A stretch of 64,000 nt of DNA from an uncultured Bacilli bacterium. GTDB taxonomy: Bacteria > Bacillota_I > Bacilli_A > RF39 > UBA660. Below are positions 15,266-51,647 of this stretch, piece by piece (within the stretch, counting starts at the first letter, position 1; the number at the start of each line of letters is the position of its first letter). Below the pieces are notes generated by a model that saw nothing but the letters and a program-made list of their open reading frames with translations, had not been told where the DNA came from and searched no databases. The stretch is from the NCBI GenBank assembly GCA_934183185.1, contig CAKPSO010000003.1, forward strand, positions 3,215 to 67,214, in the 5' to 3' direction. Position numbers and translations under genes: made by a program.

Positions 15266-16012
15266 ATGTTTGAAGATAATAAATGTGAACATAAAAAATA
15301 CTGTGAATTACCAAATGGGTGTTACATAATTGGGCCAACTGGACCTACTGGGCCAAGTGGTGGACCAGTTGGACCTAGAGGAGCTACAGGGCCTACTGGA
15401 CCTCAAGGACCTATAGGAAATACAGGGCCAGCTGGACCTCAAGGAACCCCAGGGGAAGCTGGTTTGATAGGACCTACAGGACCAACCGGACCCACTGGAC
15501 CTACTGGGCCTACTGGGCCAGTAGGATTACAAGGACCAGCAGGATTACAAGGAATCAAAGGTGAACAAGGTCCTACCGGACCTACTGGGCCAAGTGCAGT
15601 AGCAGCTTTTGGACGTAAATATGATAATTCAACAAATACCATAAGTCTAGAAGCTAATATAAATAAAGAAATCCCATTAGGAAGTACTGGACCATCATCA
15701 GGTATTACGACTGGTACCCAAAATGCATTAACTATAGTTGATAATGGTACATATAAAATAGATTATTTCTTTTCTGGATCTACTAGTGCTAATGCCAATG
15801 TAACAGTAGAAATAAGACAAAACACAACACCTATTGGTAGTAGTACTATAATTAAGGATACTACTGCTAATCAAGAAGTAGATTTTATAGGTAGTTCAAT
15901 AAATTCATTTGCAGCTGGAGATAAAATTGGTTTAAGTATAGAATCAACTAGTCAAATCACCGTATCACCATCTTCTGGTACTAGTGCATACCTAAATATA
16001 TATAAACTATAA
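15266..16012 (+). CDS. BclA-like collagen-triplet exosporium protein with C-terminal TNF/C1q-like domain
   Basis: N-terminal [25 protein letters not shown], then ~30 GxT/GPx triplets, then a C-terminal domain with [10 protein letters not shown]...AYLNIYKL resembling the BclA C-terminal domain. Good GGAGG RBS. Confidence 0.8.
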
Positions 16013-16036: not shown

Positions 16037-16690
16037 ATGCTTGATAATAAAAAATGCTCTAAAAATAAATATAATCTACCCAGCTCTTGTTATATAATTG
16101 GGCCAACTGGGCCAACTGGTCCAACTGGACCACAAGGTATTAAAGGCAATACGGGACCAACCGGGCCTCAAGGAGCCGATGGTATTAATGCTGTACGCTC
16201 TGCATATCTAGTAACATTCAACCCAAGTACAGAAGAAAATGGAATATCTATTGAACCAAATGGTAGATTACCAATAGACCGAAAAGAAATTGATATTACT
16301 AATTTGATAACACTAAATGATGATAAAACCATCAAATTTAATGAAGCAGGTCACTATAAACTAACATTTATAGTCTCTACATACATTCAAACAAATGATA
16401 TAGCATTTGACCCACATAAAGATTTTATATCTATTGGTTTCAGACAAATAAATACTGATAACATATATATAGGGGCCAGCAAATGGATATTTAATGAAAA
16501 GCCAACACAAATAATAGCACAGGGAATAATTGTTGTAAATGACATAAATAATATATATGAATTAAGTAATCTTGGTAAATTCAAAATATTCTTAAATACT
16601 CCAGATATAATAGATATCAATACACATTCCTATTTTTCTAATGCTTTACTAACCATAAACATAGAATATTTAGATAACCAAAAAGATTAA
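16037..16690 (+). CDS. collagen-triplet (BclA-family) protein with divergent C-terminal domain
   Basis: [29 protein letters not shown]... short collagen region, then a 170 aa globular domain. Confidence 0.75.
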   Translation: MLDNKKCSKNKYNLPSSCYIIGPTGPTGPTGPQGIKGNTGPTGPQGADGINAVRSAYLVTFNPSTEENGISIEPNGRLPIDRKEIDITNLITLNDDKTIKFNEAGHYKLTFIVSTYIQTNDIAFDPHKDFISIGFRQINTDNIYIGASKWIFNEKPTQIIAQGIIVVNDINNIYELSNLGKFKIFLNTPDIIDINTHSYFSNALLTINIEYLDNQKD

Positions 16691-19497: not shown

Positions 19498-20532
19498 CTA
19501 ATTACTAAACATATTTTCAATAATAGTAATTAAGTAATTAGCTGTATCATCATCAATATTCTTTGCATTTTTAACAAAAGTTCTTATATCAGACAAATTA
19601 AACTTAAATGAGGAAGTATACTCTTTACCAAAGCTTTCAAAGAAAGATTCTATTACTTGTTTTAATTTTTCTTTATCTAACTTTTCTAATCCTAAAATCC
19701 ATTCATGAAACTCCATTGCAGACTTAGAAAATTTATCTTCTATAAAATATTGCCCAAATATATTCCACGATGTTGGATAATGCTGATTAAGAGCTAATTT
19801 ATCACTAGCAACAACTATATAATTATCATTATTAAGAATAGTTCCTACTACTGAAGATGATGGTAATATATTTATTAGTTTAGTTTTTAATTTTTCATAT
19901 TTTAAAGAGTTATATTCTTCATTTCTAAAACCAGGCCCATCAAAATTATAAATCTTTTTAATTTTTTTAAATTTCTTTGATTCCATACTACCTGCCATAG
20001 CTAAATTTCCACCTTTAGAATGACCAACAACATATACATTATTATCAAAGAAATTAATATTTTTATCCAAATAATCTATAGCCTTTTTCTGAGTATAAGT
20101 AGGATATTCATAAATAAGTCTACAATTCTCTAACCAACCTATCATTGAATTATCAGTACCCTTAAAGCTAATAATAGTATCTAGATTAATTCTAAAAGTT
20201 ACAGCTCCAAACTGTGTTTCATTCGTTAAAATATTTATAAAATTACTTATTTCTAATTTTTCATATCTTTTAGAATCTTTGATTAATTCTAATACTTCAT
20301 AAGCCATTGGAATCATCACACTAGGAAAATCTTTTTTAAAATTCAAAGCATAATCATATAATTCATTTATACTTTTTACATCAGCAAAAGAAGATACAGG
20401 TAAATAAACCAAAATAGCACACATTAAACTATCTAGGCTATTCCATTTTACTTCACATAAGGAAGTATTTTTATAATATTTTAAATAATCATATATTGTA
20501 TACATACCTAACTCCATTCTCCTATTAAACAT
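19498..20532 (-). CDS. alpha/beta hydrolase, lipase class-3/DUF2974-like
   Basis: Nucleophile elbow VVGHSKGGNLA (GHSxG). 344 aa. Confidence 0.6.
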   Translation of the reverse strand: MFNRRMELGMYTIYDYLKYYKNTSLCEVKWNSLDSLMCAILVYLPVSSFADVKSINELYDYALNFKKDFPSVMIPMAYEVLELIKDSKRYEKLEISNFINILTNETQFGAVTFRINLDTIISFKGTDNSMIGWLENCRLIYEYPTYTQKKAIDYLDKNINFFDNNVYVVGHSKGGNLAMAGSMESKKFKKIKKIYNFDGPGFRNEEYNSLKYEKLKTKLINILPSSSVVGTILNNDNYIVVASDKLALNQHYPTSWNIFGQYFIEDKFSKSAMEFHEWILGLEKLDKEKLKQVIESFFESFGKEYTSSFKFNLSDIRTFVKNAKNIDDDTANYLITIIENMFSN

Positions 20533-20711: not shown

Positions 20712-20841
20712 TAATTAATCACCCTTTAAATTTAAGATTACAAGCACTATCAATTGAAATATTATAGTGATTTGTAGGAGTTACTACAATTACTTATTGT
20801 TATTACTGTTGCATTTACTTTTACAATTCAATATTACTACA

Positions 20842-21162
20842 GATAACGGTACTGAATTTTTTAATTTTTTAAATATTATTAAAGATACAAAAACAAAAAT
20901 ATATTTTTGTCATCCCTATTGTTCTGGCAAAAAAGGTACCAATGAAAGGCACAATGGAATAATAAGATATTTTATTTCTAAAAGTTCTTTGATAGAAAAT
21001 TATTCATATAAAGATATAAACAAAATAGCTGAATGGATGAATAATTACCCAAGAAAAATATTAAATTATAAAACTCCCCTTGAAGCACTTCAAGAAGAGT
21101 TTAACAATAAATCAATTTTAAATAAAATTTATAAATTACAAGAAAAGATAAATTGTTTATAG
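20842..21162 (+). pseudogene. IS30-family transposase C-terminal (DDE) fragment
   Basis: DNGTEFFNF...FCHPYCSGKKGTNERHNGIIRYF...NNYPRKILNYKTPLEAL matches the IS30 DDE C-terminus. The N-terminal two-thirds is missing. Confidence 0.75.
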
Positions 21163-23335: not shown

Positions 23336-23515
23336 AGCAACACCTCAATCCCAAAATAAATATATCATGTGTAATGCTATATGTAAACATATTTTATTAA
23401 AACATTATTATTGATATTACATAACACATATTACTTAAAATAATTTAAAAAAAAGATAAAAAAAATGTCCAATTATAAAATAATTGCATATGATGATAAC
23501 AAAGGAGTTTTTGCT

Positions 23516-24082
23516 ATGAATAAAAATAATAATCCTAACTGCTATCCATATTTTCCTGGACCTACTGGGCCAACCGGACCTACAGGATTGCAGGGACCAG
23601 CTGGTATTCAAGGGCCACAAGGTGAACAAGGGCCAACTGGTCCAACAGGTCCTGCAGCAACAAATCCGGCCACATTTGCCTATAAATATAACGACGAGGG
23701 TACAGAATTAAACCTAACAGCCAATAAAACAGATAAAATTGCCTTAAGTATTGCTGGAGAAGCTTCTGGAATATCAGTAACACTAGAAAATAGTATGGTA
23801 ATAAATAGTTATGGAACTTATAAAATAGAATACTTTTTTTCTGGATCAGCTGATAAAAACGTTGGTATAGTAACAGAAGTAGAAGTCAATGACATATCAG
23901 TAAATGGATCAGAAATAAGTAAAGATGTAACTGCTAATAATGAAGCAGATTTTCACGGAATCACAGTAGCAGTTCTTAACCCTTTAGATACAATCTATTT
24001 AGGTATAAGAGCTAATCAAGATACAGTAGTAACACCAGCACCAGATGTAAACGCTTACTTAATTCTAACTAAACTATCTTAA
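23516..24082 (+). CDS. BclA-like collagen-triplet exosporium protein (third paralog)
   Basis: [30 protein letters not shown]... then a C-terminal domain with [10 protein letters not shown]...AYLILTKLS paralogous to 15266-16012. AAAGGAG RBS 8 nt before the ATG at 23516. Confidence 0.8.
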
Positions 24083-28044: not shown

Positions 28045-28494
28045 TTACCCTCCCATAATAATTAATCTAAGAAGTCCAAAAAACCAAGCTGATACTACTC
28101 CATATAAAATAACACTACCTGCAAGTTTAAATATATTGCTACCAAGTCCAAATATAGGTCCCTCTTTTCTATATTCAATTCCTGCACTAGTCATTGAATG
28201 AGCAAATCCTGTAATAGGAATAATTAATCCACACTTACAGAATGTTACCCATTTATCAAAAAAGCCTAATGCTGTAAATAAACTAGCTAAAAATATTAAA
28301 GTAACTAGCATAAATGTAGATGCATCTTTTGTAGATATATCAAACCATCCTACATAACATTCAGTCAATACTTGTCCTATAACCCCTACTAATCCACCTG
28401 TTACAAATGCTATAAAAGCATTTTGAACCCTTGTTTCAGTAGGTTTATGTTTATTAACTATTTCTTCATACTTCTTTTTTTCCATTTTCATCAC
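28045..28494 (-). CDS. spoVAC: stage V sporulation protein AC
   Basis: 149 aa, 4 TM. AFIAFVTGGLVGVIGQVL and ITGFAHSMTSAGIEY match SpoVAC. Confidence 0.9.
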   Translation of the reverse strand: MMKMEKKKYEEIVNKHKPTETRVQNAFIAFVTGGLVGVIGQVLTECYVGWFDISTKDASTFMLVTLIFLASLFTALGFFDKWVTFCKCGLIIPITGFAHSMTSAGIEYRKEGPIFGLGSNIFKLAGSVILYGVVSAWFFGLLRLIIMGG

Positions 28495-28501
28495 CTACTA
28501 C

Positions 28502-28531
28502 TATTATGTAAATATTTAAATATTTTTATAC
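28502..28531 (-). promoter_or_regulatory. forespore sigma (SigG/SigF)-type promoter for spoVAC-AD-AE
   Basis: Minus strand reads GTATA-N18-CATAATA, ~8 nt upstream of the spoVAC RBS (consensus GnATA-N18-CATnnTA). Confidence 0.5.
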
Positions 28532-28539
28532 AAAAATAA

Positions 28540-28558
28540 AAGAGATATTCAATCTCTT
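28540..28558 (-). terminator. hairpin terminator after sigF
   Basis: AAGAGAT-loop-ATCTCTT followed by a T-rich run on minus. Confidence 0.45.
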
Positions 28559-29225
28559 AAGCAACTTCTTTCCTTAACTTTTGGAGAATCTTACTTTCTT
28601 CTCTTGAAACTTTAACTTGAGAAAGTCCCATCATTTTACTAGTTTCACTCTGAGTCATATCCTCAAAATAACGATACTTAATAAGTCTTTGTTCTTCTTC
28701 TGATAATCTAGTTAAAGCTTCTTTTAAATCAAGTACATCTTCATTGAATCCTTTTTCTTGATATGGAATAGTATCATATAAGTTAACATCTTTATCACCA
28801 TCATCACTATTAACTATATAATCAAAACTAAGTACAAATTGTTTAGACATTAATGCTTCTTGTATTAGTGAAATATCTATTTCAGAAAACAAAGATATTT
28901 CTTCTAATGTAGGTTCTCTTAGTAATTTATGCCTCAATGTATTAGAAACATCTTCTACTATTTTAGCTATTTTAAGTAAATTACGATTTGTTTTAATATT
29001 TCTATCTTCTCTAATATATTTAAGTATTTCTCCTTTAATCCACAAATATGCATATGAAGAAAATTTGGTATTAGAGTTCTCTTTATAGTTATCATAAGCT
29101 TTTTTTAATCCAATCATACCTACTTGTTTTAAATCTTCTATATCGTAATAATAATGAAATTTATTAGCATAAGCTAAAATTAGGTTTTCATATTTAAGTA
29201 ATTCTTCTTCAAAAGTATTAGTCAT
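28557..29225 (-). CDS. sigF: sporulation sigma factor SigF (SigF/SigG family)
   Basis: Sigma-70 regions 2-4 (YAYLWIKGEILKYIR; C-terminal SQVKVSREESKILQKLRK). Lies between spoIIAA and spoVA as in Clostridium. Confidence 0.8.
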   Translation of the reverse strand: MTNTFEEELLKYENLILAYANKFHYYYDIEDLKQVGMIGLKKAYDNYKENSNTKFSSYAYLWIKGEILKYIREDRNIKTNRNLLKIAKIVEDVSNTLRHKLLREPTLEEISLFSEIDISLIQEALMSKQFVLSFDYIVNSDDGDKDVNLYDTIPYQEKGFNEDVLDLKEALTRLSEEEQRLIKYRYFEDMTQSETSKMMGLSQVKVSREESKILQKLRKEVA

Positions 29226-29238
29226 ATTATCATCCTTT

Positions 29239-29589
29239 TTAAATATTTATTAATCGAAAGGCACCAAGTTCATTACTACTACTTTCTATATTCTGAAAGG
29301 CTAAATTAATTTCTTTAGTAACTTTTCTATGTATAATGGAATCATATCCACATACTACTAATTTTCCATCATGCATAATAACATCAAAATAGTGATCCAT
29401 AATACTTTTAATACCGACTTCATCAATGGATGTTAGATTTTCCAGATTAATAACAAAGTAACGTATTCCTTGTTCATATATCATTCTATCTAATTCTTCA
29501 TTTAATTGTTTAGATGTTCTTTCACTAAGAATTCCTTCTAAACGCACAAACAACATACCACGTACAAACTCCATATTAATTTTGAACAT
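29239..29589 (-). CDS. spoIIAA: SpoIIAA-like STAS-domain anti-sigma-factor antagonist with Ser-to-Glu substitution at the phospho-site
   Basis: Aligns to B. subtilis SpoIIAA over VINLENLTSIDEVGIKSIM vs VLNLEDLSFMDSSGLGVIL, so phosphoserine S58 is replaced by E and S59 by V. Confidence 0.75.
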   Translation of the reverse strand: MFKINMEFVRGMLFVRLEGILSERTSKQLNEELDRMIYEQGIRYFVINLENLTSIDEVGIKSIMDHYFDVIMHDGKLVVCGYDSIIHRKVTKEINLAFQNIESSSNELGAFRLINI

Positions 29590-29720: not shown

Positions 29721-31451
29721 TTATTCTACAACAAATGGATCAGAACTTGTGCCTATTCCAGAAGCTTTAACATTTGGTTTTATGTTTATTACAGGTCTAA
29801 CAGGACTAGGCATTATTAACAATTTGCTACCTGAAACATTATCTTGATTTCTATAAACGATCCAACCTCTACCATCAGTTTTATCAAAACCGCCTGGATT
29901 AATCATAAATGTATCAATATCACTATATAAATACCATGCAGACATTTTTTTATTTATGTAGCCACCAGCATATACTACTTCATCATATGAAATTAATCCA
30001 ATTTTTTTATATAAAATACCATGATTATTATCATCATTAGTACAAGTAAAATTTACAATATATTTATCATATACAGGTGCAATTATATTATTATATCTAT
30101 AAGTAGAGTTTGCTTTAACCTTCGCTTGTTCACAAAAAATGCCATCAGTTATATAAGAATCATAATTAACTAATTTTAAAGTATACCAATTTTCTAATTC
30201 TTTCAATAAGTTACTGTTAGAAAAATAAAATGTTTCATAATCCGATGTAGTATCCCAAGAATAGGCACTATTATCATTAATGCCTTCTTTCATAATAATT
30301 CTTATCGTTCCATCTTCATTTATTCTTACTATTCTCCACGTAAGCCCTGCAAATGATACATAATTATTTTCTACATTTCCTCTAAAATAATATGTTGGAT
30401 CTCCTGTATTAGTAGCAGTTGATTTATATAAGCCACTTGCATCTCTAGAATCCTCATAAGTAGTAGTTAATGTTGGTTCTGCATCTATTACTTCATATTT
30501 TTTTCCAAATATTGATACTTTCTCTGCCTGCTTTACTTTAATATTAATTTTGTATTCTTTAGTTACTGTTTGATCTGTACTAGTAATAGTTACTTTATAG
30601 ATATTATTACCACCTACTAGACTTACTTCACTATTATTTGATATTACTTGATTATCTTTTTCTATCTTTACATTAGCTAATGAATACTTAGGTACTATAT
30701 TTAACTTAGCTGTTGTATCACTATCTAACTCTACTTCATAGTTCCAGTCTTTATTTTCAACTTTAGTTAAACTGGTATCTCCTATAGTTATATTTTTTAT
30801 ATCAGTATTACTTCTTAATGCTTGTTCTTCTTCTGATATTACTTTAGCATTTGAATATACATTTACTGTTGCTGTAAAGGTTTGTCCTCCTATAACGCTT
30901 AAATCTGCATTTTCATCTAACCACATTTTTAATCTAAATGTCTTTAAATAATTATTAGTATTTCCTGCTACTTCTCCCTTGTAGATACTCTTTTCTACAT
31001 TATTTCCAACATCAGTAGTAGTTTGTACTAATTTACTATATAGGGTTGGTGTTAGTAATTCTGTTTGATCTATCCCATCTTGAAGATATACTTTTATATT
31101 ATCTTCACCCATAGTAGAAGTAGCTTTCTTTCTTAGTGTTACTTCATATGGTATTACTTCATTTCCTGTATTTGTTCCCTCTACTTTGAAATCAAATACA
31201 TTATTATCTCCTACTAATTCTTTACCCTTAGTATCTGATATTGGTTCTGCCTCAGTTATACTTATTCCATTACCATTAGTATTATTTTCTGTATACAAGA
31301 ACTTTAATGTACCAGTGGTAACTACATTATCTGTAGTTCCTTCTTTAGTATAAGTAAATACTGCATATGTTACTCCTATAGTTATTAAAAATAAACTTAA
31401 TATTCCTAATACTGAAAATAATATCTGTTTACTTTTATTCTTATCTTTCAT
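29721..31451 (-). CDS. secreted protein with SipW-cognate (TasA/camelysin-type) signal peptide, TasA-like N-domain and a C-terminal ~270 aa domain of unknown function
   Basis: LITIGVTYAVFTYTKEGTTDNVVTTGTLKF parallels TasA GGTWAAFNDIKSKDATFASGTLDL. The C-terminal domain (GLYKSTATNTGDPTYYFRGNVENNYVSFAGLTWRIVRINEDGTIRIIM...GIGTSSDPFVVE) is paralogous to both halves of 45984-47789. Confidence 0.6.
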   Translation of the reverse strand: MKDKNKSKQILFSVLGILSLFLITIGVTYAVFTYTKEGTTDNVVTTGTLKFLYTENNTNGNGISITEAEPISDTKGKELVGDNNVFDFKVEGTNTGNEVIPYEVTLRKKATSTMGEDNIKVYLQDGIDQTELLTPTLYSKLVQTTTDVGNNVEKSIYKGEVAGNTNNYLKTFRLKMWLDENADLSVIGGQTFTATVNVYSNAKVISEEEQALRSNTDIKNITIGDTSLTKVENKDWNYEVELDSDTTAKLNIVPKYSLANVKIEKDNQVISNNSEVSLVGGNNIYKVTITSTDQTVTKEYKINIKVKQAEKVSIFGKKYEVIDAEPTLTTTYEDSRDASGLYKSTATNTGDPTYYFRGNVENNYVSFAGLTWRIVRINEDGTIRIIMKEGINDNSAYSWDTTSDYETFYFSNSNLLKELENWYTLKLVNYDSYITDGIFCEQAKVKANSTYRYNNIIAPVYDKYIVNFTCTNDDNNHGILYKKIGLISYDEVVYAGGYINKKMSAWYLYSDIDTFMINPGGFDKTDGRGWIVYRNQDNVSGSKLLIMPSPVRPVINIKPNVKASGIGTSSDPFVVE

Positions 31452-31605: not shown

Positions 31606-31851
31606 ATGAATAGATTAAAAGATCTCAGAGAAGATAAAGACTTATTTCCAAAAGATATAGCTAAAATTTTAAACGTAACCCAACAACAATATTCTCGCTG
31701 TGAAACTGAAGAAAATCAACTATCATATGATGGATTAATTAAACTAGCATTATTCTACAAGACATCAATCGATTACATCTTAGGAATTACTGATATTAAA
31801 GAACCATATCCAAGACATTCTAAAAATAAAAGAACATTATCTAAAGTATAA
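31606..31851 (+). CDS. small XRE-family HTH regulator, divergent from TasA-signal protein gene
   Basis: LFPKDIAKILNVTQQQYSRCE HTH. C-terminal YKTSIDYILGITDIKEPYP shared with 47900-48124. Palindrome TATACACG-TTTTG-CGTGTATA in the shared promoter region. Confidence 0.7.
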   Translation: MNRLKDLREDKDLFPKDIAKILNVTQQQYSRCETEENQLSYDGLIKLALFYKTSIDYILGITDIKEPYPRHSKNKRTLSKV

Positions 31852-45550: not shown

Positions 45551-45592
45551 TAAGTAACTAAAACGTGTATCGAAATAAAAATTGAACTTGTA

Positions 45593-45631
45593 AAAAAAAT
45601 GTAGACACATAAAACGGTCTACATTTTTTTG
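45593..45631 (+). terminator. rho-independent terminator after prsA
   Basis: ATGTAGAC-loop-GTCTACAT followed by T7. Confidence 0.75.
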
Positions 45632-45639
45632 TTATAATA

Positions 45640-45935
45640 AAATTGAAGGAGAAATATATCAAGAATCAGAAAAGAGCCAAATAGATATTTATCAAAAGAA
45701 GATAAGCAAAAAATTATTAATTAAGCATTATTAAATTGTAAATCAGTTGAACAAATTACCAAAGAATATGATATTTCAGGTGAAATACTTAAGTGATAGA
45801 TAATTAAATATAATAAAGAATGTTTAGATGAAATAATTTATGATCATAATTATTTTAGACCAAGTTATACATTAAATTATAAAACCCCAATTGAGTGTAA
45901 AACTCAACTAGGGTTTAAATAAATATTTTTTACTG
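45640..45935 (+). pseudogene. internally deleted IS3-family transposase remnant
   Basis: Translation gives an OrfA HTH-like ...LSKEDKQKII...KSVEQITKEYDISGEILK with stops. It is then joined to the OrfB C-terminal ...IYDHNYFRPSYTLNYKTPIECKTQLGFK*. Confidence 0.6.
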
Positions 45936-45983
45936 TCCACTTTTTATTGACAAGTTCAGTCCATATTCTGACGCAGGTTTATT

Positions 45984-47789
45984 TTATCCAATTACATATG
46001 GATCAGAACTAGTTCCAATTCCTTTAGATATTCCCGTATCAGCTTTTATATTTAAAACTGCTCGAAGGCGATTATTATCTCCAACACTAAAGTAATTGAT
46101 ATTACCAGTTGTATAGACATACCATACATATGAAATTGAGCCAGAGAATCCAGCGGGACTCATTGTCCAAAAATATGTATTTTTATTATATAAATAATAA
46201 TTATTATTGGATTTACCATAATATCCACCAGCATAAACCATTTCGTCATAGCTTAGTAATCCTACACTTGCATTTACCAGTCCTTTTCCATTCCCATCAG
46301 CTGTGCATTTAAAATCAGGAGTATAACTTGAATATAATGTCATTGTTGTACTTCCAGATGTCCAACTTGAATCATATTTAGCTTTTGCCTGCTCACAATA
46401 ATAATTACCACTTGCAACTATACTAGCTAAATCAGTTTTATTTCCTATATTTGTTTGATACCAATTTTCAAGTGATGATTTAACCTGACTATTTGAATAA
46501 TACATAGAACTATATTCGTAATAATTTAAATTATTAAATCTATAATTTGTATTACTATTAATTCCATCTTGCATTACTATTCTAGTAGTTCCGTCTTCAT
46601 TAACCCTAACTATTCTCCATATTTGTCCAGCAAAACTTACATAATTATTATCTACATTTCCTCTAAAGTAATAAGTAGGTTTTCCTGTATTTGTATCAAT
46701 TGATTTATATAATCCACTCTCGTCACTAGTATTATTACTAGAATTAGTTAGTGTAGGTTCTTTTTCAATTAATTTATTATCATTCATTATAGCATCAGTT
46801 AAATCTTTTAATTTAATTACGTATGGATCAGAGCTAGTTCCAATTCCTTTAGATATTTCAGTATCAGCTTTAAGATTAATAATAGGTCTAAGTGTAAGCA
46901 TACTATTAGTAACATATGCATAAATCCTTCCAGAATTATCAATGTGCCAAACTTGTGAATCTTGTGCATCTGATGAGTCAAATCCAGCCGGGCTCATCAT
47001 CCAAAAGAAATTCTTATTATATAAATAATAACTGTCATTAATTTTATAGTAGTAACCACCAGCATAAATTATTTCATCATAAGTTATTAAGCCAATCTTT
47101 GAATTTACTAAGCCTTTCCCATTACCATCATTACTACATTTAAAGTCCGGATTATAGTTATCATGCACAATCATAGAGGCATTACCAGAAGTCCAACTTG
47201 TTACTAGTTTTGATTTAGCAGCCTCACAATAATAACTACCTGATGCCACATGTCGATCTAATAAATTATTCTTCCCTATATTATTGCTGTACCAATTTTC
47301 CAAAGTTGCCTTAGCCTCACTATTTGAATAGTACATATTTAAATAATTATTATGAGTTGTATTAAACCTAAAAGTAGCATTACCATTTATACCATCCTGC
47401 ATAATTAATCTTATTGTTCCATCTTCATTAATTCTTACTATTCTCCATACTTGTCCAGCAAAGCTTACATAATTATTTTCTACATTTCCTCTAAAATAGT
47501 AGGTTGGTTCCCCAGTATTTGTATCAGTTGATTTATATAAGCCACTCTCATCACTGGTATTATTGGAAGAAGTAGTTAATGTAGGTTCCTTTTCTATCAA
47601 TTTGTTTTTCCTTAATACTATACTTCTTAAATTAGAAGTGCTAGCTACACTAGTAATCAAGCTATTTTCCACATTTCCCTTTTCTTCAAATGAAAAAAGA
47701 GCATATGAAAAAGAAAAAAGTAATATACTTATAGTTATACCAATACAACAACCAAAACAAATTAATATCTTTTTTATGTCATATTTCAT
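45984..47789 (-). CDS. secreted protein with SipW-cognate-type signal and two tandem copies of the ~270 aa unknown domain
   Basis: N-terminus ...LLFSFSYALFSFEEKGNVEN. Two repeats, each containing GLYKS(T/I)DTNTG(E/K)PTYYFRGNV(E/D)NNYVSFAGQ(V/I)WRIVR(I/V)NEDGT(I/T)R...KGIGTSSDPYVI. Confidence 0.6.
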   Translation of the reverse strand: MKYDIKKILICFGCCIGITISILLFSFSYALFSFEEKGNVENSLITSVASTSNLRSIVLRKNKLIEKEPTLTTSSNNTSDESGLYKSTDTNTGEPTYYFRGNVENNYVSFAGQVWRIVRINEDGTIRLIMQDGINGNATFRFNTTHNNYLNMYYSNSEAKATLENWYSNNIGKNNLLDRHVASGSYYCEAAKSKLVTSWTSGNASMIVHDNYNPDFKCSNDGNGKGLVNSKIGLITYDEIIYAGGYYYKINDSYYLYNKNFFWMMSPAGFDSSDAQDSQVWHIDNSGRIYAYVTNSMLTLRPIINLKADTEISKGIGTSSDPYVIKLKDLTDAIMNDNKLIEKEPTLTNSSNNTSDESGLYKSIDTNTGKPTYYFRGNVDNNYVSFAGQIWRIVRVNEDGTTRIVMQDGINSNTNYRFNNLNYYEYSSMYYSNSQVKSSLENWYQTNIGNKTDLASIVASGNYYCEQAKAKYDSSWTSGSTTMTLYSSYTPDFKCTADGNGKGLVNASVGLLSYDEMVYAGGYYGKSNNNYYLYNKNTYFWTMSPAGFSGSISYVWYVYTTGNINYFSVGDNNRLRAVLNIKADTGISKGIGTSSDPYVIG

Positions 47790-47899
47790 ATACTACCTAC
47801 TCTCCCATTATCATTGTCTATACAAAATATACACGATATCTCATGTACTGTCAATACATCAAATGTAATGTATGAAAAATGATATAAGAGAGTGAAAAT

Positions 47900-48124
47900 A
47901 TGGAAATAAAAAGATTAAAAGATCTACGTGAAGATAAATACCTATATCAAAAAGAAATAGCTAGTCTATTAAATACAACCCAACAAGTTTACAGTGAGTA
48001 TGAATTAGGAATACGCCTAATGCCTATTGATAAAATTAATATCTTAGCTGATTTTTATAAAACCTCTATAGATTATATAGTAGGTAGAACTGATGTAAAA
48101 GAACCATATCCCAAACGTAAATGA
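47900..48124 (+). CDS. small XRE-family HTH regulator (paralog of 31606-31851)
   Basis: LYQKEIASLLNTTQQVYSEYE HTH. C-terminal YKTSIDYIVGRTDVKEPYPKRK. Divergent from the duplicated-domain protein gene. Confidence 0.7.
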   Translation: MEIKRLKDLREDKYLYQKEIASLLNTTQQVYSEYELGIRLMPIDKINILADFYKTSIDYIVGRTDVKEPYPKRK

Positions 48125-49904: not shown

Positions 49905-49937
49905 AGGAACTGTAATTTTACAGTTCCCTTTTTTATT
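49903..49937. terminator. bidirectional terminator
   Basis: GGAACTG-TAATTTTA-CAGTTCC followed by T6. Confidence 0.75.
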
Positions 49938-50763
49938 CTATTTTAGTTTCTACTTCTATTCTATTGCTTGGAGTTACCTTTTCTTTTGACCATTCACTCC
50001 ACTCTTCATAAACCTTACGTTTACAAGTAGTATAACATGAACTATTTTCCTCAGTACAACCATCTTTCTTACAACGATAGCTTTCTGTCCTAAATTTACG
50101 ATAACGATAATATGTAGTAGTAGCTAAATTCTTAACTATTACCTTTCTTGATTTCTGAGTTATATTTCCAACATAATCAACAGCAGTATAGTTAACAGTA
50201 TACTCACCATCATTAGTAGTATCTATATTAGTAACATCAGCACTATACTCTTTAACCCCAGAACCATCATCAGTAACAGAAATACTCGTTTTATAATTAT
50301 ATACTCCACCTTTTTGAACATATAATGGATCAGTAAATTGAATATTAGGTCCCAAAGTATCGATATTATTAATATTAACACTAGCTTTAGGACTAATTTT
50401 ACCCTTTTCATTCTTAACAACTACTGTATAAGTACCATTTTTATCAATTAAAATAGCATTTTCATTTTGCCATGTCTTACCACCATCAAACGAATAAGAA
50501 ACAAGTTTTACTTTCTGATTATCAACAGTAAGAGTAATAGGATCCTTAGTCCATTCAGTTATAGATAAATGAGTAACTGGCAAAGTAGCATCAGTTTTAT
50601 TAAGTAAAGTATTAACTACAAAGAAAATAACTATTCCTATAATAACTAAAGCTAATATAATACATGCTATAATTATTATTAACTTATTTCTCTTTTTAGC
50701 TTTTTCTTTATCTTCTTTAGTTTCTAATTTAATATCAAATTGATCATCTTCTGTATACATCAA
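49933..50763 (-). CDS. membrane-anchored protein with Ig-like (DUF5011-like) domain and Cys-rich C-terminal WSEWS tail
   Basis: N-terminal TM. YSFDGGKTWQ and DGEYTVNYTAVDYVGN Ig-like motifs. C-terminal YYRYRK...C..C...C..CKRKVYEEWSEWSKEKV. Confidence 0.5.
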   Translation of the reverse strand: MMYTEDDQFDIKLETKEDKEKAKKRNKLIIIIACIILALVIIGIVIFFVVNTLLNKTDATLPVTHLSITEWTKDPITLTVDNQKVKLVSYSFDGGKTWQNENAILIDKNGTYTVVVKNEKGKISPKASVNINNIDTLGPNIQFTDPLYVQKGGVYNYKTSISVTDDGSGVKEYSADVTNIDTTNDGEYTVNYTAVDYVGNITQKSRKVIVKNLATTTYYRYRKFRTESYRCKKDGCTEENSSCYTTCKRKVYEEWSEWSKEKVTPSNRIEVETKIE

Positions 50764-50771
50764 ATGTCACC

Positions 50772-51647
50772 TCAATCTTCTTTTATCATAGTTTCTACTT
50801 CCGTAGTAGCATTAGCTTGAACTTTTTCTTGCTGCCATTCACTCCATTCACCCCATGTTATATTATTACATGTCTTATAACATGTTTGACAGCACTGTTT
50901 ATTTTCATTCATTTTGTATCCAGTTGGACATGTACCAGTTTCTATAGCTGAATATGAAGAAACGCAGTTACATAAGTATGGTTCACATTGAGTAGTTTGA
51001 ACTACACCCTTTCTATAACGATAATACGTTCTACCCTTAATATCTCTAATAATAATAGTACGATTCTTTTCAACAAAATTACCTGCATTATCAAATGCTG
51101 AATAAGTAAGGACATATTCCCCCTCAGCAGATGTATCGATAGTAGCTGGAGTCACTGTATAATTATTATTAAGTCCAGAACCACTATCAGTAACTTGTAC
51201 TCCCATTCTAGGAGAAAAAATACTACCCATCTGAACATAAGTAACACTTTCAAAAGCCATAGTTGGTGGTTCATTATCTATATTATTAACTGATATTACA
51301 TTCTTCTTACTAAGTTTACCATTTTTATCCTTTACTTGAACTACCACTTCCCCATTTTTAGAAACTATATATAATGGACTTTCCTGGAAACTATATCCAC
51401 CGTCAAAAGAATATTCACTTATTTTACTAGTATCATTTTCAACTTTAACAGTTATACTTTCAGACGTCCATTCAGTAGTAGATAAACTAACTACTGGTAC
51501 TTTTACAAGTGGTAAACTCCTTATATATACCACTAATAATACCCCTAATAGTATCATTAAAATAATACAAGTAATAATAACAGCTATAATTATATGTTTA
51601 GTTTTAGTATTTGATATCTTTCTTAATGCCTGCTCTTCATTATACAT
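50772..51647 (-). CDS. paralog of 49933-50763 (membrane anchor, Ig-like domain, Cys-rich WSEWS tail)
   Basis: YSFDGGYSFQ, EGEYVLTYSAFDNAGN, C-terminal 12-Cys region ending WGEWSEWQQEKV. Confidence 0.5.
   Translation of the reverse strand: MYNEEQALRKISNTKTKHIIIAVIITCIILMILLGVLLVVYIRSLPLVKVPVVSLSTTEWTSESITVKVENDTSKISEYSFDGGYSFQESPLYIVSKNGEVVVQVKDKNGKLSKKNVISVNNIDNEPPTMAFESVTYVQMGSIFSPRMGVQVTDSGSGLNNNYTVTPATIDTSAEGEYVLTYSAFDNAGNFVEKNRTIIIRDIKGRTYYRYRKGVVQTTQCEPYLCNCVSSYSAIETGTCPTGYKMNENKQCCQTCYKTCNNITWGEWSEWQQEKVQANATTEVETMIKED

Follow-up and report, generated by a model that had tools for sequence, protein, structure and literature searches.

We analysed a stretch of 64,000 nucleotides (nt) from an uncultured Bacilli bacterium (the window, meaning the whole stretch of DNA; G+C content 27.6%) and focused on a gene that encodes a protein of 601 amino acids (aa) with two tandem modules, on its 576 aa paralog in the same window (paralog B) and on the small XRE-family helix-turn-helix (HTH) genes that lie divergent to both. 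At the locus of the 601 aa gene, strains differed in the number of family genes, and the core of a single module was replaced as a sharply bounded cassette. We consider it reasonably probable that the protein is a variable, lectin-like surface protein of the adhesin type with cassette-swapped heads. The coordinates of all features are collected in Table 1.

The 601 aa gene is located between the genes for RNase J and PrsA. This interval contained one family gene in the window and in strain L169, which share the same single-gene locus, versus three in strain L084 (Hadza metagenome). In L084, the interval comprised an XRE gene, family genes of 599, 601 and 580 aa and a gene for a 142 aa double-HTH protein, and the 4.3 kb that hold the two additional family genes and the double-HTH gene corresponded to a stretch of only 410 bp in the window (45579–45988). 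The 142 aa protein (L084 5838–6266) has two HTH_3 domains; its gene lies divergent to the third family gene and before it, and is absent from the window. Between the window and L169, DNA identity was 98–100% in module 2 and in the flanks, to which the 410 bp filler belongs, and 92–100% upstream of the divergent tract. This tract, of approximately 500 bp (at about 46900–47400), was the exception, with an identity of 50–74%. The copy 1 core that takes its place in L169 was 97–98% identical to copy 1 of the second paralog (g2) of L084. The earlier note had described an actively diversifying family, and the difference of one versus three family genes at the same locus, together with the sharply bounded core replacement, shows this directly.

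Typing of the module cores gave four cassette types in five combinations. The window allele was alpha-beta, L084 gene 1 and protein P0002 were alpha-alpha (both copies 95–97% identical to each other), P0003–P0005 were gamma-beta, P0006 was delta-beta, and L084 gene 2 and P0007 were gamma-delta. In the three-gene haplotype, the neighbouring paralog has cores that were 97–98% identical to the gamma and delta cores found in single-gene alleles. The core of copy 2 was 98–100% identical in P0003–P0006, but only 43–63% identical in P0002 and L084 gene 1. Along the protein, identity between the window allele and P0003 was 90–97% up to residue ~117, 32–63% at residues 146–294 and 97–100% from residue 355 on, and identity to P0002 fell only past residue ~415. 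Exchange of cassettes and variation of the locus were thus observed between strains.

The most conserved DNA between the two copies in the window was found in the first 247 nt (83%) and the last 86 nt (83%) of the module, and these conserved ends offer natural homology tracts for recombination. A comparable boundary was found in paralog B, whose stalk was 97–98% identical to that of P0101 and ~90% identical to that of L084 gene 3, with 45–50% identity in the head and the break at the start of the module. Within metagenome-assembled genomes (MAGs), stalks of the same class were 75–100% identical and heads 55–67%. The window contained no template/variable repeat pair of a diversity-generating retroelement (DGR), the only repeats being the module copies (no search for a reverse transcriptase was made), and a DGR target was ruled out within the window on this ground. 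Signatures of invertible promoters or phase variation were limited to weak A+T-rich inverted repeats, with no meaningful simple repeats.

The two modules are long, true tandem duplicates. When the halves of the protein (residues 1–335 and 336–601) were compared by BLASTP with composition-based statistics, residues 62–325 aligned with residues 338–600 at 63% identity and 76% positives (E 4e-110), which rules out a similarity of low complexity. Each module was also 46–48% identical to residues ~313–576 of paralog B (E 1e-72 and 2e-64). All four open reading frames (ORFs) described in the earlier note (the two family genes and their XRE genes) and all peptide blocks quoted from them were present, and its two copies of ~270 aa, here ~265 aa each, were confirmed together with their kinship to the paralog. 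The duplication inside the gene is real as well, but it is not an unusual feature, since tandem modules are common in the family.

The earlier note had also called the domain unknown, and in the window proteins it is indeed recognised by neither Pfam nor NCBIfam. Its relatives give it an identity. A search of 5.8 billion proteins returned more than 3500 relatives (3554 matches among the candidates scored), none of them named, though some carried the precomputed label PF19789 (DUF6273; gathering score 23.5 bits). Residues 440–615 of P0012, a protein 65% identical to the window copies, matched positions 6–171 of the 172 of PF19789 with 26.4 bits, while P0009, P0028 and P0045 scored 30.9–35.5 bits; the relatives that pass the cut-off are 61–68% identical to the window copies. 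In an alignment of 31 diverse module copies, 8 matched DUF6273 at E ≤ 0.01. As judged from sequence, the module belongs to DUF6273 by transitivity, given that close relatives pass the profile over its full length, and the ~265 aa unit is read on the same ground as a DUF6273 core, itself divergent, to which a conserved extension of ~65 residues is added at the N-terminus.

The AlphaFold2 model of copy 2, built from the 31-copy alignment, had a mean pLDDT of 95.9 and a pTM of 0.93. Its sole significant Foldseek match in the PDB was 9qa6, the IgA peptidase of Thomasclavelia ramosa (E 4.6e-6, probability 1.0), with a query-normalised TM-score of 0.52 over 285 columns and 13% sequence identity. Among predicted viral structures (BFVD), 14 matched at E ≤ 1e-3, and many of these are gut-phage proteins that bear the name DUF6273. 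According to the model, the module thus has the same fold as annotated DUF6273 proteins and is a divergent, C-type-lectin-like member. The N-terminal domain of 9qa6 is annotated as DUF6273 (PMC12402451) and has been described as a C-type-lectin-like core that carries large decorations, is about double the usual size and lacks the long loop of C-type lectin domains (PMC12237041), and it is on this published description that the link of the module to C-type lectins rests. Zinc ligands have been described for the IgA 'peptidase domain'. In gut phages, DUF6273 forms a receptor-binding domain of the C-lec fold, with the DGR variable region at the C-terminus (PMC10743442, PMC11792537, bioRxiv 10.1101/2024.10.15.618418).

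Across the 31 copies, column entropy was lowest at residues 21–70 and highest at residues 203–240, where the hairpins that immediately precede the conserved LRPVINLK strand are located. Six polar residues of the module were invariant (R58, N60, C128, C158, D161 and N163), and we assume a disulfide between the two cysteines. Some lectin-like folds are enzymes, and the invariant Cys, Asp and Asn could form an active site, in which case the modules would be catalytic, for instance formylglycine-generating-enzyme-like or glycan-modifying. We regard this as extremely improbable, because no enzyme family appeared among the Pfam, NCBIfam, PDB sequence or Foldseek results, and because variable surface hairpins with cassette exchange are the signature of a recognition domain and not of an active site.

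Residues 1–31 of the 601 aa protein have the sequence of a signal peptide or signal anchor, which may be cleaved at its end. A hydrophobic stretch at the N-terminus was found in 238 of the 253 family members with a complete N-terminus, and in 146 of the 253, across different architectures, it was followed by an xYAxF motif with the consensus GVTYAFFNYTKEGTTDNTIKTGTITF. Its counterpart in the 601 aa protein is FSYALFSFEEKGNVENSLIT, and the post-signal segment is also present in paralog B in spite of the different architecture of that protein. The earlier note had seen a TasA signal here. TasA and camelysin have similar N-termini, and the tasA operon is repressed by the XRE-type protein SinR, so the family members could be accessory or tip subunits of a TasA/camelysin-like fibre, with the post-signal peptide as SipW-type signal and donor strand and a SinR-like XRE protein. 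The occurrence of the motif across architectures fits such a fibre, as does the SipW-dependent signal model TIGR04088 (cut-off 19 bits), which, among signal-type models, scored best or alone in relatives of the XRE partners (13.7–14.6 bits). We consider it quite unlikely all the same, as TIGR04088 stayed below 19 bits everywhere it was tested (6.7 bits in paralog B and 8.9–14.6 bits in related proteins and XRE-gene partners) and did not match the 601 aa protein, in which no TasA/camelysin jelly-roll region follows the signal. Residues 1–318 of paralog B were modelled (pLDDT 80) as a helix and two beta-sandwiches that matched only generic Ig-like structures in Foldseek, which ruled out a TasA-like fold for this region. 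In addition, the profile search of the PDB turned up no TasA sequence, none of the frames of the window had an SGSM(E/Q)P or GDSMxP motif of a SipW-type (S26-type) peptidase, and no SinI/SinR oligomerisation tail was found in the 74 aa XRE protein (Pfam, NCBIfam). What remains of the TasA signal is a resemblance below threshold.

The XRE genes gave a mixed picture. The 74 and 81 aa proteins, both above the HTH_3 (PF01381) cut-off of 23 bits, were 58% identical (BLASTP, E 5e-26) and had the tail FYKTSIDYI(V/L)G.TD(V/I)KEPYP in common, in agreement with the divergent, paralogous pairs with near-identical C-termini reported before. At the syntenic locus the pairing was kept in other strains, and the L084 ortholog was 97% identical to the 74 aa protein and held the same position. 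Two non-syntenic pairs were found in other species, one with a 77 aa XRE protein (59% identical) and a 569 aa family gene (L021) and one with an XRE protein 49% identical (L115). An ORF of ~401 aa that resembles a transposase (IS110-like by eye) lies at L021 4–1209, ~1.5 kb from the pair, and its presence at a non-syntenic locus is consistent with the pair moving as a unit. Besides the inverted repeats upstream of the 601 aa gene, comparable palindromes around a GTCAA lie between the divergent genes of the three remaining pairs (window paralog B locus, L021 and L115). They are suggestive only as evidence for XRE operators.

In the rest of the family the pairing was rare. An XRE gene stood beside the family gene in 1 of the 42 loci of other genomes with complete upstream DNA, and when the search started from the 74 aa XRE gene, a family gene adjoined 1 of its 80 metagenomic relatives. 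The co-occurrence of domain and XRE gene therefore holds at the syntenic locus and in L021 and L115, but not family-wide, and as a rule of the family it was ruled out both ways (absent from ~98% of family loci). Many XRE relatives were instead divergent from other genes for signal-anchored proteins, with TYAYF-type N-termini, pilin-like or of an 'MMLETxAGSGxYE' family. On the contigs L090, L091, L098, L109, L148 and L157; L101, L106, L110 and L127; and L139, L141, L142 and L165, the partners comprised the 'MMLETxAGSGxYE...WPT' family, proteins with pilin-like 'GITLIALV' N-termini and large 'TATYAYF' proteins. There are hints that this XRE subfamily is a general switch for surface-protein genes.

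The XRE gene may also be a mere neighbour, or regulate only itself, with no regulator-effector pair at all; this we find somewhat unlikely. The 41 of 42 loci without an XRE gene and the 79 of 80 XRE relatives that adjoin other genes speak for it, and promoter-like sites were not enriched over shuffled sequence (28 sites vs 23.1 ± 5.4). Against it, both family genes of the window have a paralogous divergent XRE gene, the arrangement recurs non-syntenically in other species, palindromes overlie the -35 box in all four pairs, and many members of the XRE subfamily are divergent from genes for signal-anchored proteins.

The filler between prsA and the 601 aa gene is bracketed by 54 nt inverted repeats (45561–45614 and 45927–45980; 70% complementary), and its left arm overlaps a perfect 14 nt hairpin (45593–45630) that looks like the prsA terminator. 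It was 98–100% conserved in L169 and identical in L001–L003. The earlier note had placed an IS3 remnant at 45640–45935. Read through its stops, this part resembles by eye an HTH followed by an '...LNYKTPxE...' tail, and the peptide 'YKTPIECKTQLGFK', which gave rise to the transposase-tail look, falls on the terminator-like hairpin that follows the 601 aa gene. No Pfam transposase matched at E ≤ 1, tblastn against 72,556 plasmids gave no match, and tblastn and blastn against all fetched loci recovered only the same stretch in the same strain, which leaves the IS3 label unsupported; the filler is possibly a decayed mobile element. The short motif of the supposed transposase tail (45880–45915) also occurs, as 'PRKILNYKTPLEA', in a 131 aa ORF at 20767–21162 of the window that has no Pfam family.

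A remnant of a prophage or mobile element, made of a receptor-binding-type gene, a Cro/CI-type repressor and a decayed insertion sequence, is very unlikely in our view. DUF6273 modules are typical of the receptor-binding proteins of gut phages (PMC10743442), the 74 aa XRE protein had its highest score, below threshold, with the phage RstR repressor model (36 bits vs a cut-off of 80), a broken transposase-like frame with 54 nt inverted repeats lies beside the gene, and the content of the locus differs between strains. However, no phage structural, integrase or lysis genes were found on either side, and the flanking RNase J, PrsA, HIT and Suf genes were syntenic in all strains. Phage tail proteins lack the Sec-type N-terminus, the family has at least 14 paralogs per genome with Ig-like stalks typical of cell-surface proteins, and the reading of an insertion sequence is unsupported. 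The exact 601 aa protein was found on 10 public contigs with its neighbours unchanged (RNase J, XRE gene, PrsA, HIT and Suf genes). A search for the exact sequences of paralog B and P0101, to learn their genomic context, gave no record.

The module defines a large multigene family that is specific to uncultured low-GC gut Bacilli. A module profile run against 1.84 billion representatives at 50% identity detected 8677 proteins at E ≤ 1e-3, of which 1375 reached E ≤ 1e-30. The number of copies per protein ranged from 1 to 11, and tandem repetition is ordinary in the family, since arrays reach 11 copies; giant proteins with 5–11 tandem modules include P0126 (4905 aa), P0127, P0128 and P0130. Typical fusion partners were an N-terminal hydrophobic signal and domains of the Ig-like kind, Cadherin-like (PF12733) and Bact_surface_Ig-like (PF16403). 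The latter serves as stalk in some members (P0009 and P0012) and is also found in the N-terminally anchored products of two adjacent genes of the window beside RNase J (49933–50763 and 50772–51647). A locus search in one genome per species (GTDB) with two subfamily-specific peptide patterns yielded 502 stretches, and the best 80 were analysed. These came from 22 gut MAGs (uncultured Bacilli, 'Tenericutes' UMGS484, Acholeplasma sp. CAG:878 and similar) of humans, rabbits, ruminants and other animals. A single MAG held 14 of the 80 loci, which means at least 14 paralogs in that genome. In 31 of the 80 loci (L004–L083) the gene was truncated on its 5' side by a contig end, as would be expected if repeats of the conserved signal and stalk parts interrupt short-read assembly; the number of copies in a genome is for this reason probably underestimated.

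Taken as a variable adhesin-type protein, the 601 aa product would be exported and either secreted or anchored by its N-terminus, with the two tandem ~265 aa modules as its working, ligand-binding parts. Each would adopt the DUF6273-type C-type-lectin-like fold after the conserved N-terminal extension. The family scaffold would consist of a conserved export signal, often with an Ig-like stalk, that bears one or more variable heads. Diversification would proceed by homologous recombination between paralogs and alleles, in which the conserved 5' third and 3' end of the module provide the homology and the cassette that changes place is the ~500 bp core enclosed by them. The exchanged core would change the loops most likely to form the binding surface, the C-terminal hairpins, a region that DGRs mutate in phage DUF6273 proteins. 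Through such swaps strains may bind different targets or be recognised differently, and the likely result would be that binding specificity, and/or the way in which host antibodies or phages recognise the strain, changes from strain to strain. For the 74 aa XRE protein, the most likely role is that of a local factor controlling transcription from the divergent promoter, and probably of a repressor, because the palindromes overlap the -35 box. We can also imagine a bolder version, in which a DGR-independent recombination cassette system reshuffles lectin-like heads on a constant scaffold of export signal and stalk, the post-signal peptide serves as a TasA-like donor or attachment strand onto a fibre or the surface, and XRE repressors pick the expressed locus. 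We hold this bolder version to be unlikely; if true, a commensal would vary its antigens or its ligand specificity by this means.

Several results weigh against the adhesin-type reading. Neither the window copies nor the whole proteins matched PF19789 of Pfam at E ≤ 1 or E ≤ 0.01. Canonical C-type lectins matched the copy 2 model weakly and without significance in Foldseek (8q4e, E 1.1, probability 0.44; MBP-C, CD94 and CD23, E 2–4; all E > 1). The subfamily profile found no sequence in the PDB, and single-protein sequence searches of the PDB gave chance matches only or none. On the regulatory side, besides the missing enrichment of promoter-like sites, the palindromes of the XRE region are short and lie in DNA of 72% A+T. 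We know of no DUF6273 domain with a known ligand. The IgA peptidase's N-terminal domain is dispensable for IgA cleavage, and its function is not known (PMC12237041, PMC12402451). Finally, the comparison sequences are all metagenome assemblies, so the mosaic pattern could stem from chimeric assembly of paralogs; counter to this, the same alleles recur in several independent samples.

Table 1. Features of the window, with positions, strand and the basis of each assignment.
Feature	Position	Strand	Basis or remark
Gene of the two-module 601 aa protein	45984..47789	minus	ORF list; identical to P0001 of public metagenomes
Basic N-terminus and hydrophobic stretch ending FSYA↓LF (residues 1–31)	47697..47789	minus	Sequence; putative cleavage
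Conserved post-signal peptide (LFSFEEKGNVENSLIT...) and linker (residues 32–61)	47607..47696	minus	Common to the 576 aa paralog and the family consensus GVTYAFFNYTKEGTTDNTIKTGTITF
Module copy 1 (residues 62–326), DUF6273 / C-type-lectin-like, cassette alpha	46812..47606	minus	HMM envelope, BLASTP, cassette typing
Variable core of copy 1	46908..47438	minus	Sliding identity at protein and nucleotide level
Module copy 2 (residues 338–601), cassette beta, the modelled copy	45987..46778	minus	AlphaFold2, Foldseek
Variable core of copy 2	46008..46547	minus	Cassette typing, sliding identity
Paralog B, 576 aa: signal, two beta-sandwich stalk domains, one module at 29724–30497	29721..31451	minus	ORF list, BLASTP, model
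74 aa XRE-family HTH gene	47900..48124	plus	Divergent from the 601 aa gene, 110 bp apart; Pfam HTH_3, 33.3 bits
81 aa paralogous XRE gene	31606..31851	plus	Divergent from paralog B; HTH_3, 30.3 bits
Promoter-like TTGACA-17-TATATT (11/12 matches) upstream of the 601 aa gene	47826..47854	minus	Consensus scan, pattern match only
Two overlapping inverted repeats (ATGTAcTGTCAaTACAT, ATACATcaaatgtaATGTAT) over the -35 box; candidate XRE operators	47843..47873	unstranded	
Filler of 420 bp that separates prsA from the 601 aa gene, broken transposase-like frames	45561..45980	unstranded	Takes the place of 4.3 kb in L084
Terminator-like hairpin, 15 pairs and T-rich tail, ~70 nt downstream of the 601 aa gene	45882..45916	minus	

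Elsewhere in the window, three collagen-repeat genes (15266–16012, 16037–16690 and 23465–24082) had a BclA C-terminal domain of the exosporium type and GPT-rich DNA repeats in common. Together with the STAS, sigma-factor and SpoVAC genes at 28045–29589, these suggest that the organism forms spores. The gene at 19498–20532 encodes an Mbeg1-like protein (PF11187, E 9e-56).

The DUF6273 domain, functionally uncharacterised, and variable surface families with conserved scaffolds and swapped heads were already known. What is new is that lectin-like heads, which in phages are diversified by retroelements, are here diversified by cassette exchange between paralogs, and the case is clean because the compared strains are nearly identical across the locus. 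DUF6273 is abundant in gut bacteria and gut phages, with one solved example, on an IgA peptidase. As strains that are otherwise 98–100% identical over the compared locus differ only in the ~500 bp core of one module, the residues that set specificity are marked beforehand, and natural pairs of alleles could be compared directly on glycan, mucin or immunoglobulin arrays. The family also gives a reason for the breaks that MAGs of this lineage show at its genes.

The module shares with the N-terminal domain in the IgA peptidase (9qa6) the overall fold, a size about twice that of a canonical C-type lectin domain and a place at the N-terminal or outer end of an exported protein of a gut Firmicute. 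Sequence identity is however 13%, with no match at profile level and the window copies under the Pfam threshold, and the functional part of the 601 aa protein is made up entirely of the module, in repeated form, whereas in 9qa6 it is an appendage of a peptidase. With the DUF6273 proteins of phage DGRs ('tentaclins', Mtd-like targets) the module has in common the fold family and the variability toward the C-terminal hairpins (PMC10743442, PMC11792537, bioRxiv 10.1101/2024.10.15.618418). In contrast to these, the window has no template/variable pair and diversity comes as ~500 bp cassettes of paralogs, and the family of the 601 aa protein is chromosomal, with a Sec signal and no phage context.

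The locus resembles tapA-sipW-tasA and SinR of Bacillus subtilis in that a small XRE-type HTH gene stands beside the gene of an exported protein whose N-terminus resembles a SipW signal, but it differs in the lack of a SinI/SinR tail, of sipW (in the window) and of a TasA fold, and its match to the signal model is below threshold. Neisseria pilE/pilS, Mycoplasma genitalium MgPa/MgPar and Borrelia vlsE are families of variable surface proteins driven by recombination. Conserved flanks, swapped cores, many paralogs and strain mosaics at a fixed expression locus are common to these families and to that of the 601 aa protein. In the latter, however, the donors appear to be complete, separately promoted paralogs and not silent cassettes, the exchange was seen between strains and not within a clone, and the variable unit is lectin-like.

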